This document shows positions 51,128 through 56,087 of a DNA stretch of 57,774 nucleotides, piece after piece (the first letter of the stretch is position 1; each line of letters opens with the position of its first letter). The position numbers were made by a program, and so were the translations under genes. The notes under the pieces are model-generated. The model saw only the letters and a program-made list of their open reading frames with translations, did not search any database and was not told where the DNA came from. Source of the DNA: a virus (lineage: Duplodnaviria > Caudoviricetes); the IMG/VR virus record IMGVR_UViG_3300010318_000003, positions 1-57,774 of that record; one strand, given 5' to 3'.

Positions 51128-53053
51128 ATGACTCCATTTAAAACAGAAAAGATTGCTCCTGACTGGATGTCAAAGGAAGCAATTGATACGCTTTCACGCG
51201 GATATTTAAGACCCGGCGAAACTCCAAAAGACCTGTTTATTAGGGTCGCCAAAACAGCTCAAAAATATCTTACCAAAAACCCTGGCCTTGGCGAGGACAT
51301 TTTTGAAATGATGTGGGAAGGGTATGTTGGTGGTGCTTCTCCTGTTCTTTCTAATTTTGGAGCAAGTTCGGGTCTTCCAATTTCATGCTATTCTGTGCAT
51401 TTATCTGATTCTGTGCAGTCCATCTATTCCCACTTAAAGGAGGTTGCGGCCCTCTCTAAGAACGGTGGAGGAGTTGGTGTGTATCTTGGAGATGTTAGAC
51501 CTGCCGGAGCCCCTATTACAGGGGGAGGTAAGAGCACGGGTGTGGTGCCGTGGGCCCAACAGTACGACCTGGCAGCAAGTGTAGTAAGCCAAGGCGGCGT
51601 GAGACGGGGTAGCTTTGCTATTTATCTTCCCATTACCCACTCAGATTTGCCTGAACTTCTTCGCTCTAAAGACCATTCTCAAGGCGACCCTCGTAAGTTT
51701 ATCGATAGCAACATTGCAGTTACCGTTGACGACGAGTTTATTAACGCCATGATCTCCGGTGACTTGGAAAAGCAAAAGCTATTTGGCGAAGTGTTGAAGA
51801 TTAGAATGGTGTCAGGATCTCCTTATATTATTTATATCGATAACGCGAATCGCCAAAACCCTGAATGTTACAACCAACGAGGACTAGAAGTCTCTACCTC
51901 TAATCTCTGCTCTGAAATCTTCTTGCATACCGATGAGAACCACTCGTTTGTTTGTGTATTGAGTAGCCTTAATTTAGCAAAATATGACGAGTGGAAAAAC
52001 TGGAGAGGAAAGAACACCGGAAAGACCGTTCCAGAGCTCACAACTTATTTACTTGATGCTGTTGTCGAGGAGTTTATTCACAAGGCGGAGCGCTTGCCGT
52101 CAATGGGAAGAAGTGTCAGATTTGCTAGGAAATCCAGAGCTTTAGGCCTGGGAACAATGGGATTACACGCCCTTTATCAAAGCCGCGGCTATGCATTTAA
52201 ATCAGAAAAGGCACGGCAACTCAACATTGAATGTCATAAATTTATTAAAGATAACGCCGAGAAAGCATCGAAACAGATGGCTAAAGAATATGGCGAACCT
52301 GAATGGTGTAAGGGCAACGGAATGAGGCATACACACCTTGTGGCTATTGCCCCTACTAGGTCCAACTCCGTTATCTCTGGAGCAGTGTCCCAAGGCATCG
52401 AGCCCTTAGATGCCAATTTTTATGTTGCAAAACAAGCCAAAGGAACTTTTGTTCGTAAGAATCCTTACCTTGAAAAGCATCTAGAAAGCATTGGTAAAAA
52501 CAACGAAGATGTTTGGGAATCAATTCTGGAAATGAGAGGAAGTGTACAACATCTCGAGTTCTTGAGTGAAGAGGAAAAAGAGCTATATAAAACCGCACGC
52601 GAAATCGACCAATTCGAGTTGGTAAGACAGGCAGGTGATCGCCAGCCGTTTGTTTGCCAAGGCCAATCACTCAATCTCTTCGTAGATCCAGAGGCCGATG
52701 CTTCTGAAATTTTTAAGCTTCATCTTAGCGCTTGGAAAGTTGGACTGAAGTCGTTGTACTATCTGAAGAGCTCCTCTCTCCTAGTCAAGAAATCTGCTCC
52801 TAAGTCATCAGAGGCCAAAGCAAAAATTATCACCAAATCCGACTGTCCTTATTGCGTAAGAGCCAAAGCGCTCCTAAGCTCGCAAAACATCTCATACAAA
52901 GAGATCAAACGCGAGGACGTTGAAGACTTCCCCTACGCAACGGTTCCCCAGATCTGGCTGGATGGTCAGCACATTGGCGGCTTTTCAGAACTTGAGGAAA
53001 AGTTTACAGGAGAAAAGTCAAAATATTCCGAGTGCGTAGCTTGTGAAGGTTGA
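51128..53053 (+). CDS. nrdA: Ribonucleotide reductase class I alpha subunit with an inserted glutaredoxin domain
   Basis: SPVLSN, GLPISCY, GGGVG, SNLCSEI, VCVLSS, APT, QGQSLN, KSLYY; then CPYC...TVPQI...IGGF Grx domain and terminal CVACEG; no ATP cone. Confidence 0.93.
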   Translation: MTPFKTEKIAPDWMSKEAIDTLSRGYLRPGETPKDLFIRVAKTAQKYLTKNPGLGEDIFEMMWEGYVGGASPVLSNFGASSGLPISCYSVHLSDSVQSIYSHLKEVAALSKNGGGVGVYLGDVRPAGAPITGGGKSTGVVPWAQQYDLAASVVSQGGVRRGSFAIYLPITHSDLPELLRSKDHSQGDPRKFIDSNIAVTVDDEFINAMISGDLEKQKLFGEVLKIRMVSGSPYIIYIDNANRQNPECYNQRGLEVSTSNLCSEIFLHTDENHSFVCVLSSLNLAKYDEWKNWRGKNTGKTVPELTTYLLDAVVEEFIHKAERLPSMGRSVRFARKSRALGLGTMGLHALYQSRGYAFKSEKARQLNIECHKFIKDNAEKASKQMAKEYGEPEWCKGNGMRHTHLVAIAPTRSNSVISGAVSQGIEPLDANFYVAKQAKGTFVRKNPYLEKHLESIGKNNEDVWESILEMRGSVQHLEFLSEEEKELYKTAREIDQFELVRQAGDRQPFVCQGQSLNLFVDPEADASEIFKLHLSAWKVGLKSLYYLKSSSLLVKKSAPKSSEAKAKIITKSDCPYCVRAKALLSSQNISYKEIKREDVEDFPYATVPQIWLDGQHIGGFSELEEKFTGEKSKYSECVACEG

Positions 53054-53107: not shown

Positions 53108-53566
53108 ATGGACCTTGTAAGTTTTATCAACGACGGATTCACTTCTCAACAAAAGTACGCTACTGCATCTGGCGTAAAAGGCCCGTTCGACTATATGTCC
53201 CGCGAGGAACGCCACGCCAAGGTCATTGAATGCATTGGCCATATGATCGAAGAAACCATCGAGGCCCGCGTATATGTCCCTCGTCGTTCCTGGAAAACTG
53301 CAGAACCATCATTTCTTGATAATGCTAAGCTCCGCGAAGAGTTTATTGCAGAGATGTTTGACGTTCTACTCTTTTTTCGTGCTACTCTTGCCTACGCTGG
53401 TGTTGATGGCTCAGATTTTGTGGCTACAGCAAGTAGGAAATTAAATTACAACGCTAAGCGCAAGGATCACAAAGTCAACGGAGATAAAGCCGCACCGGCC
53501 GATCCGTCCAAAGAACTTCAGGGAGACTGCAACTCTGCAAAATTCGACAATGACGAAGCAAACTGA
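53108..53566 (+). CDS. All-alpha NTP pyrophosphohydrolase (MazG/dimeric dUTPase/dCTPase-like)
   Basis: EETIE...SWK...AEMFDVLLF ExxE/ExxD metal motifs, then KLNYN. Confidence 0.7.
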   Translation: MDLVSFINDGFTSQQKYATASGVKGPFDYMSREERHAKVIECIGHMIEETIEARVYVPRRSWKTAEPSFLDNAKLREEFIAEMFDVLLFFRATLAYAGVDGSDFVATASRKLNYNAKRKDHKVNGDKAAPADPSKELQGDCNSAKFDNDEAN

Positions 53567-53717
53567 GCACAGGGCCTTCGGGCCCACAAAATGTCATTAT
53601 TGCGACGGCAGAGGATTTTTAATAATTTTTTGCACCTCTTCCGAGGGAAAAATACTGCCGAGTTTGGTAGAAGAATGCGAGCACTGCAATGAAACTGGAG
53701 TCCTTCAAAAAAATTAG
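53550..53717 (+). CDS. Small zinc-finger protein, 55 aa (not in ORF track)
   Basis: MTKQ...CHYCDGRG...CEHCNETG, a DnaJ-type CxxCxGxG pair; overlaps both neighbours. Confidence 0.65.
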   Translation: MTKQTEHRAFGPTKCHYCDGRGFLIIFCTSSEGKILPSLVEECEHCNETGVLQKN

Positions 53718-54183
53718 TCCGTTAGCTAAAGAACAAATTCTTGTTCTAAACGCGTCATACGAGCCAATTAATATTACGTCGTGGAAAAGAGCATTTGTGC
53801 TTCTTTTAAAAGACAAGGCTCAAGTTATTTCTGATACGGTTATAAAACTTACAAACTTTATAAGAATTCCTTATAATAAAATGATGAGAGCTAAGCCTTC
53901 TAGGCAGTCAATTTATATTAGAGATAACCATAAGTGCCAGTATTGTGGGTCTACAAGAAAGCTTACCATAGATCACGTAATTCCAAAATCTAGGGGTGGC
54001 GATGATAGCTGGGAAAATCTTGTAGTTGCCTGCAGTAGATGCAACACTCTAAAGGGAAACACTCCCTTAGAGCAGTGCAGCTTAAAGCTTTCAAGAAAGC
54101 CTACTAAGCCAAGAACTCACTTAGATTTAACTTTGTATAAATCTAGTAACGAAGAGTGGAAAGAATACTGCTTTATTGTTTAA
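53689..54183 (+). CDS. HNH endonuclease (McrA-like, cyanobacterial type)
   Basis: ILVLNASYEP, RDNHKCQYCG, LTIDHVIPKSRGG..SWENLVVACSRCNTLKG. Confidence 0.9.
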   Translation: MKLESFKKISPLAKEQILVLNASYEPINITSWKRAFVLLLKDKAQVISDTVIKLTNFIRIPYNKMMRAKPSRQSIYIRDNHKCQYCGSTRKLTIDHVIPKSRGGDDSWENLVVACSRCNTLKGNTPLEQCSLKLSRKPTKPRTHLDLTLYKSSNEEWKEYCFIV

Positions 54184-54227
54184 AATATAATAGGAGTATG
54201 ATATAGTATATTCCTACGTTCATCCAG

Positions 54228-54428
54228 ATGCTTAGTTTACTTCTGGCTTTTACCTTAGTACACCACGCAGACGATTCCTCCTACGGGTGGCACATGTCGT
54301 GTGAAAGGTTCCAACAAAGAAAAGTTGAAATCTCTATGGATAACAACTTAGATCAAAAATCTAAGTATAATCTTATTGGTTATCTTAAGTCAAAGGTTGA
54401 AGGTGAATGCAACAGCAAACTAATCTAG
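54228..54428 (+). CDS. Small two-Cys hypothetical protein (ORF inside the outer P2 loop)
   Basis: 66 aa; hydrophobic N-terminus; Cys25/Cys61. Confidence 0.7.
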   Translation: MLSLLLAFTLVHHADDSSYGWHMSCERFQQRKVEISMDNNLDQKSKYNLIGYLKSKVEGECNSKLI

Positions 54429-54464
54429 GACGCAAGTAAGTCGCGCAACGGATACGTTGATCCT

Positions 54465-54635
54465 ATGATAGATATACTTTTATACACCTCTTTAACTTGT
54501 TCTCAGGCTGACGCAGTTATGCTTAAGATCAAAAACAACGATCATATGTCGAAGGAAATTCGCATTGAACTTTTAGAAGTGGTAAAAGAATCTAACCCAA
54601 ATTGTAAATTTGGCGCATGGGACGCAAACGACTGA
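54465..54635 (+). CDS. Small two-Cys hypothetical protein, 56 aa (ORF inside the inner P2 loop; not in ORF track)
   Basis: MIDILLYTSLTCSQADAVMLKIKNNDHMSKEIRIELLEVVKESNPNCKFGAWDAND. Confidence 0.7.
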   Translation: MIDILLYTSLTCSQADAVMLKIKNNDHMSKEIRIELLEVVKESNPNCKFGAWDAND

Positions 54636-54685
54636 AGGAACGGATAAGCCTAATAACCTTATACCTAAACTTCAGGAGAAAACAA

Positions 54686-54823
54686 ATGACCACAGCAACC
54701 TACAGAGGAATTCAGTACAACGTCAAGGCCGAGCTTAACGAGCTCTCTATTATTAAGAAGAGACTCGAGAAGGTAGAAAAACTCTATAACGCTCAGCTCG
54801 TAATGGCAGGCAAAAAAGGGTAA
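54686..54823 (+). CDS. DUF4278-like ('downstream peptide') small protein
   Basis: MTTATYRGIQY has the YRGxxY signature; AGGAG RBS at 54674-54678; lies downstream of glutamine aptamers as in cyanobacteria. Confidence 0.8.
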   Translation: MTTATYRGIQYNVKAELNELSIIKKRLEKVEKLYNAQLVMAGKKG

Positions 54824-54844
54824 CTGATAAGTAATATATATAGC

Positions 54845-54872
54845 AAAGGGGGCTCATTGGCCCCCGTTTTTT
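54845..54872. terminator. Bidirectional rho-independent terminator
   Basis: AAA-GGGGGC-TCATTG-GCCCCC-GTTTTTT between convergent genes. Confidence 0.8.
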
Positions 54873-54875
54873 ATG

Positions 54876-56087
54876 TTAGATTGACCAGATTGGCTCCATT
54901 GCTTTCTTAGAAACTACGTTTGATTGTCTAAGAATCTTTGGAGTTCCATCGTCCTTGAGCTCAGGCTCAATCCACTCTCTTTCTCCATCAAGAGCTGCAA
55001 CAGCTTCTTCAAGCCAGCATTGAGCAGCGTTTACCGGAACATTCTGGCAAATAACGTTAGAGTCCTTTGTAGAAATTTCTGTTTTATCCGCAAAGTCGTC
55101 TGGAAATCCCATAAGGGCCAGAGCCTCACTCGTCATGAGCCAGCGGTCTTCATAAGGATGTTTTAGCATCGGAAGTGTGCGCCACATCAAAGCTTGAGTT
55201 CTATACCATGCAAGCTTCATGCTTCCGTCCATGATATTTAGTCCGTTAGCTTTCTTTTCACGAGTATAGTTTAACCAACGATTCATACGCTCATCGCGAA
55301 CCGCTATGCACGCTTCGTCTAACCACCCAGAGTTGTAGATAACGTTCCACGTGCTAACCATTCTTTGACTTGCAATCTGAGAAAGTATGTCTTGATCACT
55401 TGAGCCTCTGTATTTTTCTTTGATAAATTGCCACAACGGGTCGGTGCTAGGAGCGGGCTTATTACTTACCAACGGAGATTTGCTAAAATGTCTATCTCCT
55501 AGAAACTTATGAAAAGGAACAAAAGGCTTGGATACCTCATTAAATACAGGGACCTTATTGCCCTTCCATAAAAAGAAGAAGCTACGCGTTCTTTCTTGAG
55601 GAAGGCCGTTTTTCAACGCAGATGTTTTGATAAGGGTCATTGCGTATCCGTTTTCTTGGGCCAAGGTGTTAATCCTCTCAGCAAATTCCTCTCCGGCTTT
55701 AGAGTACAGAGTTGGCGCGTTCTCAACCATTATAACTTTTGGTTTAATTTTTTTCATCGCGAACTCAGACCCGTTAATCATGTGAATATTACTCGGAGCA
55801 GAACATCCACGGGGGTTGTTTGCATCAGGGCCTTTTGTCGTGTTTGCATTTGATAAACCCGCGCATGGAGGCAAACATGTAATAATATCTACGTATTTTT
55901 TAGGCTCGGTCTCTTCTAGGTTAAAATATGGTATAGTGGGGTAGTATTTCAGGCAGTACTGGTCATTTCCGCTAAAAACGCTATCCCAAGACGCAATCCA
56001 TTCAGCAGGTTTACCGAGAAGCTGTGTAGCTCCAATAACGCTCCCTCCTACAAGAGGGATAACGTGCCCGTGAGTGTAATTTGACAT
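54876..56087 (-). CDS. C5-cytosine DNA methyltransferase
   Basis: PPCAGLS (motif IV), VENAP (VI), PQERTRSF (VIII), EALALMGFP (IX), QNVP (X); atypical motif I IPLVGG. Confidence 0.88.
   Translation of the reverse strand: MSNYTHGHVIPLVGGSVIGATQLLGKPAEWIASWDSVFSGNDQYCLKYYPTIPYFNLEETEPKKYVDIITCLPPCAGLSNANTTKGPDANNPRGCSAPSNIHMINGSEFAMKKIKPKVIMVENAPTLYSKAGEEFAERINTLAQENGYAMTLIKTSALKNGLPQERTRSFFFLWKGNKVPVFNEVSKPFVPFHKFLGDRHFSKSPLVSNKPAPSTDPLWQFIKEKYRGSSDQDILSQIASQRMVSTWNVIYNSGWLDEACIAVRDERMNRWLNYTREKKANGLNIMDGSMKLAWYRTQALMWRTLPMLKHPYEDRWLMTSEALALMGFPDDFADKTEISTKDSNVICQNVPVNAAQCWLEEAVAALDGEREWIEPELKDDGTPKILRQSNVVSKKAMEPIWSI

Follow-up and report, generated by a model that had tools for sequence, protein, structure and literature searches.

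A candidate nested double glutamine aptamer enclosing small genes in marine cyanophages

Results

The element and its distribution

The stretch of DNA analyzed here (the window) comprises 57,774 nucleotides (nt) from a marine cyanophage (Caudoviricetes), a 57.8-kb fragment with a CheckV completeness of 36% (IMG/VR record IMGVR_UViG_3300010318_000003). At about positions 54214 to 54872 of its + strand lies an element in which three small open reading frames (ORF1, ORF2, and ORF3) are interleaved with conserved strings of the type I glutamine (glnA) riboswitch (Table 1). A reading of this DNA from its letters alone (the sequence-only reading) had described a class I glnA aptamer carrying a second, circularly permuted aptamer in the loop of its P3 helix, and every motif that it listed was found in place. 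For the outer unit, the expected glnA strings CGUUCA, GGACG-N-AAGUA, and UGAAGGAACG are read at 54217-22, 54428-38, and 54633-42, and the same junction strings align to the RF01739 consensus in Infernal alignments of homologues. We take AGUA in the outer joining strand J2/3 and GAA in J3/1 to be the two halves of the E-loop.

A distant blastn search with positions 54100-54900 matched 229 phage records, all from cyanophages (171 Synechococcus phage, 54 Cyanophage, and 4 Prochlorococcus phage), and the similarity begins at the first CGTTC or no more than 2 bases from it. In phage Syn9 the ORFs are annotated gp196, gp197, and gp198. Among 83 loci fetched without reference to the RNA (80 viral contigs found by ORF1 protein similarity and 3 phage records), 82 have the motif layout; the sole exception, L015, has foreign sequence right after the inner hairpin loop. 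Further loci came from pattern scans of viral contigs, and a parser took 272 central anchors in cyanomyophage genomes and viral contigs to 243 complete copies, 212 of them unique. The layout recurs across loci, and the element is conserved rather than a chance occurrence.

Complete copies come in four architectures: P2 with ORF1 and P2' with an ORF (107 copies, the form in the window), a short P2 hairpin and P2' with an ORF (88 copies), both helices short (33 copies, 79-95 nt overall), and P2 with ORF1 but a short P2' hairpin (15 copies). Nine matches came from scanning metagenomes for this layout with CGGAAGUA, the canonical strand; five are real nested elements upstream of DUF4278-like genes and four are due to chance. 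The five show that the arrangement is not confined to one sequence lineage. Scans for P3 variants returned no match for GVCG and two for GTDG, both in unrelated coding sequence. In a loose pattern scan of genome contigs, all 120 among the matches listed were due to chance and none had the element, a result that is uninformative on cellular genomes. The custom model R1 gave no more than a partial match at the element locus in the window and the record.

Covariation and folding

Pairing was assessed on an alignment of 83 sequences (A2) and on one of 20 compact, ORF-free sequences (A1). On A2 the nested structure pairs 98.8% of cells, compared with 94.3% after shuffling, and none of 500 shuffles reached the observed value; controls with slid partners paired 31-56%. 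Two-sided changes occur at nine pairs, and the covariation score of 0.136 exceeds the 0.051 of shuffled alignments, none of the 500 attaining it. On A1, 99.1% of cells pair and the score is 0.201 against 0.059. For the three-way junction, 97-100% of cells are paired in P1, P2, and P3, and each of these helices has two-sided changes.

The strongest signal comes from P3, because its strands lie 40-230 nt apart. On A2 its first pair occurs as GC, AU, or GU and its fourth as GC or AU, and U-A pairs are also found in this helix. The 3' strand, which was left free in the searches, tracks the 5' strand (ATCG/CGAT, TTCG/CGAA, GTCA/TGAC, and GTCT/AGAC); exceptions concern GTCA, which faces TGGC once (still pairing) and CGAC once (a mismatch).

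The two P1 helices had been read as differing by a compensatory swap that only the nested pairing accommodates. Copies with CAACG/CGTTG inside number 11 of the 212 unique ones, the window included, with no half-changed copy, and two of the 11 also have CGTTT...AAACG outside. In L086 and L152 the fifth outer P1 pair is altered on both sides to U-A. On A2 the nested pairing gives CG in 81 rows and UA in 2 at the fifth pair of outer P1 and GC in 74 and CG in 9 at the closing pair of P1', whereas a tandem pairing of the same strings leaves nine unpaired cells in each P1 and has no compensatory changes there. On a tree of the remaining columns the nine swapped rows are scattered, with at least six changes forced by well-supported branches; we do not use these as an event count because mutation and recombination are inseparable there.

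RNAalifold, applied to 92 ORF-bearing sequences including the window, recovered P1, P3, P1', and P2' de novo, and both the minimum free energy (MFE) and centroid folds of the window include P2, P1', P2', and a helix over the Shine-Dalgarno sequence of ORF3. We regard the nested fold as well supported by these comparisons.

Relationship to glutamine riboswitch families

Natural ORF-free forms were scored by Infernal in place of deleting the loops in silico. The sequence-only reading had looked to both the glnA and the Downstream-peptide models for matches once the ORF loops were gone. For glnA (RF01739, gathering score of 35 bits) this was borne out in four of five ORF-free forms (L093, 43.6 bits; L137, 42.9; L121, 40.3; L113, 38.4), and these alignments run from the first CGUUC to the last GAACG, that is, over the whole nested unit, with the inner unit treated as an insert of 38-48 nt that replaces the model's four-base P3 loop. 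The fifth form (L120) scored 30.9 bits, over the 3' unit only. Taken alone, 3' units scored 28.9-33.3 bits against Glutamine and 24.2-34.0 bits against Glutamine-II, with one score exceeding a threshold, that of L113 against Glutamine-II (the Downstream-peptide model, RF01704, 33 bits); the other 3' units fell below. Membership in Glutamine-II was rejected; the second hairpin of that model aligns with non-standard pairs, and covariation puts GAACG/CGUUC in a plain hairpin with no pseudoknot. These scores and the covariation support the nested, permuted glutamine aptamer fold first proposed from the letters; the element is probably an architectural variant of the type I glutamine riboswitch, a putative nested double aptamer.

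Huang et al. (2019; PMC6698751) describe glutamine-II, a class without an E-loop, in which glutamine contacts C1, G2, C39, and G40 of the CGUUC/GAACG helix, G18 and C19 of the CGC strand, and G41; C19 and G41 form a long-range pair, and the pairs U4:A37 and C5:G36 are not conserved. Our inner unit consists of CGUU-N paired with N-AACG, a G as the next base, and a CGC strand after P2', and it varies only at the equivalent of C5:G36. Compared with the residues listed in that source, all those that contact the ligand are present. In the loci obtained by means other than the RNA, G invariably occupies the first loop base, which follows the middle NAACG and lies where the long-range G:C pair would form (82/82), and G also precedes the middle NAACG throughout (82/82). 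GAACGG, CGUUCA, and ACGCA are invariant in the 20 unique ORF-free copies; an inner core that is invariant in the absence of any ORF is not retained merely for ORF2 translation. The inner unit resembles a permuted, E-loop-less core built on the shared P3, and its junction is a putative second glutamine-binding site that may bind cooperatively with the first.

Expression platform, target gene, and transcription

In every lineage the last GAACG is followed by a spacer, YUUYAGGAG, and AUG. Position 2 of J3/1 and the base just ahead of AGGAG vary together (G:C 95, A:U 72, G:U 37, and A:C 0 in 204 unique copies, 8 others being too short or unmatched for the count), which indicates that CUGAAG (54632-37) pairs with CUUCAG (54670-75) overlapping the Shine-Dalgarno sequence. 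The element appears to have a single expression platform, not two.

The gene behind this platform is ORF3. DUF4278 (PF14105) was detected in eight of nine ORF3 homologues at E ≤ 0.05 and in two of nine above the cut-off. DUF4278 marks the glutamine synthetase inactivating factor IF17, the translation of which is raised by glutamine binding (Klahn et al. 2018; PMC6212724).

A consensus scan puts the predicted transcript start at about 54214, 3 nt before P1, and related loci have TTGACT...TATAAT at an equal distance. Assembled contigs from four metatranscriptome runs span 54168-54837, 53947-54756, 53902-54756, and 54287-54756. One RNA-library contig starts at 54214 right after adapter letters, a weak hint of a 5' end. 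Runs X1, X2, and X4 also hold contigs of related variants that cover only the core pieces 54418-54467 and 54603-54676, with 167-210 different letters between them, at depths of 76-1144 compared with about 27-30 for the contigs of this phage; relatives of the element are abundant in these runs.

Most short-P2 copies stand directly behind TTGACT-N17-TATAAT (about 10-45 nt upstream of the first CGTTC), the -10 box lying within a short palindrome, GGTCTATAATAGACC. In the window, at 54193-54216, GGAGTAT...ATATTCC flanks TATAGT. Promoters placed in a palindrome in this way recall the promoter-stem-loop (PeSL) cassettes reported from T4-type phages (PMC4122927).

Genes within P2 and P2'

ORF1 and ORF2 match phrog_6471 (E = 9e-34) and phrog_504 (E = 1e-25), respectively. 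Pfam has no family for either, and in the ESM Atlas both fall only in unnamed viral clusters. Third codon positions are the most variable in both ORFs and alignment gaps come in threes, by which they look like real genes. Their boundaries are tied to the aptamer helices: the AUG lies 4 bases past the junction A in 167 of 177 P2' ORFs and 76 of 107 P2 ORFs, J3/1 opens with the ORF2 stop (UGA or UAA) in 169 of 177, and the ORF1 stop ends 2 bases before the A that closes P2 in 77 of 107. Duplexes between cognate 5' and 3' ends are more stable than those between non-cognate ends for ORF1 (-16.0 versus -10.6 kcal/mol) and ORF2 (-12.6 versus -10.4 kcal/mol), values that are uncorrected for relatedness; the two ends of each ORF region appear to co-evolve.

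Where P2' encloses an ORF, the P1' loop usually starts with GAG (155 of 177 copies), which together with the preceding G makes GGAG 10 nt before the ORF2 AUG; where it does not, only 4 of 35 copies have such a loop. The window has GAUA in this loop. At the other end of ORF2, its last codons (WDAND and the stop, 54618-54635) are encoded by the aptamer core UGGGACGCAAACGACUGA, so that protein and RNA constraints both act on this stretch. A stop codon (UGA or UAA) is kept whichever of G or A occurs in J3/1. Several unrelated ORF families of differing lengths occupy the P2' loop (A2 columns 95-290, e.g., L090, L111, L124, L182, and L168), all beginning at the same AUG position and most ending at the J3/1 stop, as if at a cassette site. 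Three features go beyond what had been proposed from the letters alone: the loops appear to hold genuine genes whose start and stop codons fall in the stems, the P1' loop carries the ORF2 Shine-Dalgarno sequence, and a single covarying platform serves the DUF4278 gene.

Features of the locus and side observations

Table 1. Features of the element, with window positions
Feature	Position	Strand	Basis or remark
Promoter-like site TTTAAA-17 nt-TATAGT	54179..54207	+	Consensus scan only
Outer P1, 5' strand CGUUC, followed by A 54222	54217..54221	+	Partner is 54638-54642
P2, 5' strand UCCAGAU (54223-29) and extension UAGUUU (54233-38); contains ORF1 AUG (54228-30)	54223..54238	+	MFE and centroid folds
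ORF1, 66 amino acids (aa), phrog_6471, filling the P2 loop; stop UAG inside P2 3' strand	54228..54428	+	
P2, 3' strand AAACUA (54417-22) and AUCU(A)GGA (54423-30)	54417..54430	+	Sequence, fold, cognate-end duplexes
Outer J2/3 CGCAAGTAA / CGCAAGUAA: CGC of the predicted binding site and presumed AGUA half of the E-loop	54431..54439	+	Matches Rfam Glutamine consensus CGGAAGUA in homologue alignments
P3, 5' strand GUCG, common to both junctions	54440..54443	+	Covaries with 54629-54632
CG joining strand of the inner unit	54444..54445	+	
Inner P1' hairpin CAACG-GAUA-CGUUG with swapped C-G closing pair, then A 54460	54446..54459	+	Sequence, covariation, fold
P2', 5' strand UCCUAUG; contains ORF2 AUG (54465-67)	54461..54467	+	Sequence, covariation, fold
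ORF2, 56 aa, phrog_504, filling the P2' loop; runs through P2' 3' strand, CGCAAA, and CGAC; stop is UGA of J3/1	54465..54635	+	
P2', 3' strand CAUGGGA	54616..54622	+	Sequence, covariation, fold
Inner J2'/3 CGCAAA (CGC of putative second site; GUA absent)	54623..54628	+	Sequence; ACGCA invariant in ORF-free forms
P3, 3' strand CGAC	54629..54632	+	Covariation
J3/1 UGAAG and preceding C (CUGAAG); presumed E-loop half and predicted anti-Shine-Dalgarno	54632..54637	+	Pairs with 54670-54675 in MFE and centroid folds
Outer P1, 3' strand GAACG, and conserved next G	54638..54643	+	Next G in 77/77 loci fetched independently of RNA
CUUCAG (partner of CUGAAG) overlapping ORF3 Shine-Dalgarno AGGAG	54670..54678	+	Fold, covariation
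ORF3, 45 aa, TYRGIQY motif; predicted regulated gene, DUF4278/IF17-like in homologues	54686..54823	+	phrog_545 match
Intrinsic terminator-like hairpin (54848-65) and T run closing the unit	54848..54872	+	Sequence scan

Upstream on the + strand lie a ribonucleotide reductase-like ORF with a glutaredoxin-like tail (51128-53053), a 152-aa ORF (53108-53566), and a 164-aa HNH endonuclease-like ORF (53689-54183) that is annotated as such in S-TIM54. A 403-aa ORF on the - strand (54876-56087) matches a DNA methylase of S-TIM54.

At three loci (L015, L158, and L199) unrelated sequence interrupts the element directly after the inner hairpin GAACG-GAG, and an annotated homing endonuclease separates the two pieces of the match in phage Sf-CH5 (PV340852.1). 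Interruptions at or after this loop suggest the insertion of mobile genes into the riboswitch. Viral contig L229 has a pair of nested elements separated by about 470 nt: the first (997-1240) encloses an ORF in P2', and the second (1711-1800) is fully compact. On another, a PhotoRC-II RNA (RF01717; L093:1021-1116, 57.1 bits, gathering score of 39) accompanies a compact nested element.

Discussion

We think it probable that 54214-54872 form one transcription unit, the first ~430 nt of which are a nested double glutamine aptamer with embedded genes that controls ORF3. The outer three-way junction (P1, P2, P3, and the AGUA...GAA strands of the E-loop) would be a type I glnA glutamine aptamer. What takes the place of its P3 loop would be a second three-way junction built on the same P3, consisting of the tetraloop-capped P1', P2', and the CGCAAA strand; it would be a circularly permuted version of the same core, lacking the E-loop. 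P2 and P2' would be long-range helices, each closed over a complete small gene. CUGAAG of J3/1 can pair alternatively with the CUUCAG that covers the ORF3 Shine-Dalgarno sequence, and, by analogy with the cyanobacterial gifB switch, glutamine would lock P1 and J3/1 in the aptamer, free the Shine-Dalgarno sequence, and turn ORF3 on. A second glutamine is probably bound by the inner junction, making P3 stiffer. Since the AUG codons of ORF1 and ORF2 and the ORF2 GGAG in the P1' loop fall within aptamer helices, translation of the embedded genes and folding of the aptamer should exclude each other.

Several points weigh against this proposal. The window itself has no Rfam Glutamine match, either at the gathering threshold (0 matches) or at E ≤ 10 on 54100-54760, because ORFs of 190 nt and 150 nt occupy the P2 and P2' loops; the search at E ≤ 10 gave only chance-level matches, to freshwater-2 (19.5 bits, a score owed to the Shine-Dalgarno stretch), a snoRNA, and a CRISPR repeat. 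The MFE fold of the window lacks P1 and P3, and its z-score is only -1.79. The two CGUUC and two GAACG strings are identical in 201 of the 212 unique copies, in which both folds are possible, and only 11 copies discriminate between them; in these swapped copies a tandem P1 would still retain four of five pairs, and recombination of the 13-nt hairpin could have produced their scattered distribution without independent mutations. UAAAG replaces UGAAG in 71 of 212 copies, which alters the GAA that we assign to the E-loop, and the inner unit, which has neither GUA nor UGAAG, is not a full type I core. In L030 and two similar unique copies both P3 regions are a GCCGAC direct repeat that is non-complementary as parsed, which could reflect gene conversion between the strands or a shifted helix, and L246 also has non-complementary P3 positions as parsed. 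Because NAACG/CGTTN, a G as first loop base, and pairs 1-3 of P2 were required by the parser, counts at these positions follow by construction, whereas other positions were free; loci from the pattern scans are likewise biased toward a conserved J2/3. ORF3 of the window has no Pfam match, only the TYRGIQY motif and the phrog_545 match. Finally, RNA libraries can contain DNA.

The nested fold may be real and the outer unit nevertheless the sole sensor, with the inner junction acting as a ligand-free scaffold that clamps P3 across a long insert, as a translation-initiation module for ORF2 (Shine-Dalgarno sequence in the P1' loop, AUG in P2'), or as both. We consider this unlikely, while allowing it an appreciable chance of being right. 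The inner unit indeed lacks the E-loop strands, having CG in place of UGAAG and CGCAAA with no GUA in J2'/3, and loops starting with GAG are concentrated in the copies with ORF2, which implies that the P1' loop has been shaped by translation. A role confined to ORF2 or to clamping sits poorly with the three core strings that stay invariant in all 20 unique copies free of ORFs and with the unvarying G at the position of the long-range G:C pair. Moreover, glutamine-II is described as binding its ligand without an E-loop and with exactly these residues (PMC6698751).

If, as we propose, both junctions bind glutamine, the element could be a two-input device, a tentative idea to which we give rather low odds of being correct. 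Two glutamine sites on one helix common to both would make the response steep. Ribosomes translating the embedded genes would unfold the sensor, because the start and stop codons of these genes and one Shine-Dalgarno sequence belong to the aptamer stems, and a ribosome on ORF2 would terminate on the anti-Shine-Dalgarno strand itself. The output of the IF17-like inhibitor would then be set by host glutamine together with translation capacity, and expression of the embedded genes and of ORF3 would be reciprocal.

Another arrangement would be two tandem aptamers, in which the first and second CGUUC pair with the middle and last GAACG, respectively, and either GUCG/CGAC forms a pseudoknot between the aptamers or the RNA alternates between tandem and nested states as a switch. 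The P1 strands are identical in most copies, the 3' unit alone reaches the scores given above, and 157 glutamine doublets are on record (Sherlock et al. 2022; PMC9481103), yet we judge this arrangement improbable. In all 11 unique copies that vary at the fifth P1 pair, the compensating change is in the nested partner, and in none is it in the tandem partner. Read as a tandem, the two units would each lack a separate P3, and the E-loop would be divided between them, AGUA in one and GAA in the other; Infernal prefers the nested alignment at a higher score. Side-by-side aptamers that each have their own P1-P3 and platform were rejected on the same lack of a unit-specific P3, on the unpaired cells in each P1, and on the presence of a single helix sequestering the Shine-Dalgarno sequence.

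Very improbable in our estimation is that the conserved strings are mainly recombination boundaries for small gene cassettes, like the promoter-stem-loop cassettes of T4-type phages, with the riboswitch vestigial: ORFs enter at identical sites to give the four architectures, the P2' ORF families differ, core states are scattered on the ORF2 tree, and a promoter lies within a stem-loop just upstream, as in the PeSL elements recorded in T4-like phages (PMC4122927), but compensatory changes in P3, P1, P2, P2', and the anti-Shine-Dalgarno helix, together with the constant link to a DUF4278 gene, point to selection on the RNA fold, since recombination sites need identity and not complementarity. 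A role in recombination and a role as a riboswitch are not exclusive.

Our preferred structure, a nested double aptamer, has partial precedents. Like the type I glutamine RNAs (glnA, RF01739), the outer unit has the three-way junction, the conserved strings, and an association with DUF4278/IF17-like genes; unlike them, the element carries a whole second junction on P3 where they have a small hairpin, its P2 can enclose a 66-aa gene, its J2/3 reads CGC where the consensus is CGG, and its ORF-bearing forms are invisible to the Rfam model. The tandem glycine riboswitch likewise has two homologous aptamers for one amino acid and a single platform, but its aptamers are adjacent and dock by tertiary contacts, whereas here one aptamer appears inserted into a helix of the other with its strand order permuted; the likeness raises the possibility of cooperative or mutually stabilizing binding. 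Group I introns carry ORFs in peripheral loops, with helices closed over hundreds of nt. They are self-splicing ribozymes with homing endonucleases; in the element, the host RNA would be a metabolite sensor, with the start and stop codons in its stems.

The inner unit shares with glutamine-II (RF01704; PMC6698751) a CGUUC/GAACG helix, an adjacent hairpin, a CGC strand, and the absence of an E-loop. In glutamine-II, GAACG lies downstream in a pseudoknot loop; here it lies upstream, joined to CGUUC by a loop of 3-4 nt, a circular permutation, and the third helix is common to another aptamer. Tandem glutamine riboswitches also place two glutamine-type cores within ~100 nt on one mRNA, but as complete, side-by-side units with several platforms, in contrast to the nested pair with a shared P3 and one platform (Weinberg et al. 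2010, PMC2864571; Sherlock et al. 2022, PMC9481103). In Sherlock et al. the 157 doublets, along with 4 triplets, are listed as pseudo-cooperative, with several expression platforms; that review does not use the term "nested", and some of the reported doublets may in fact have the nested arrangement. In the literature searched (a scope that left out Ames and Breaker 2011 and supplements), glutamine aptamers are nowhere described as nested or permuted, in keeping with the sequence-only reading, which knew of no such form, and nowhere as containing genes.

The same architecture occurs in 229 phage records and hundreds of viral contigs, compared with the only two glutamine riboswitch aptamers that a 2017 survey gives for cyanophage genomes (McCown et al. 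2017; PMC5473149). We attribute the oversight to the genes that sit inside it. A circularly permuted aptamer inserted in the helix of another, with the helix shared, would be a new design principle. The genes within the sensor arms are the most surprising feature of the element: whole protein genes lie within a fold predicted to sense a metabolite, and their start and stop codons belong to the sensor itself, so that coding and structural constraints overlap. The natural ORF-free forms of 79-95 nt are ready-made constructs for binding and structural work. For the phages, the element would tie gene control to the nitrogen status of the host through an IF17-like gene that, by analogy with its cyanobacterial counterpart, glutamine may switch on.

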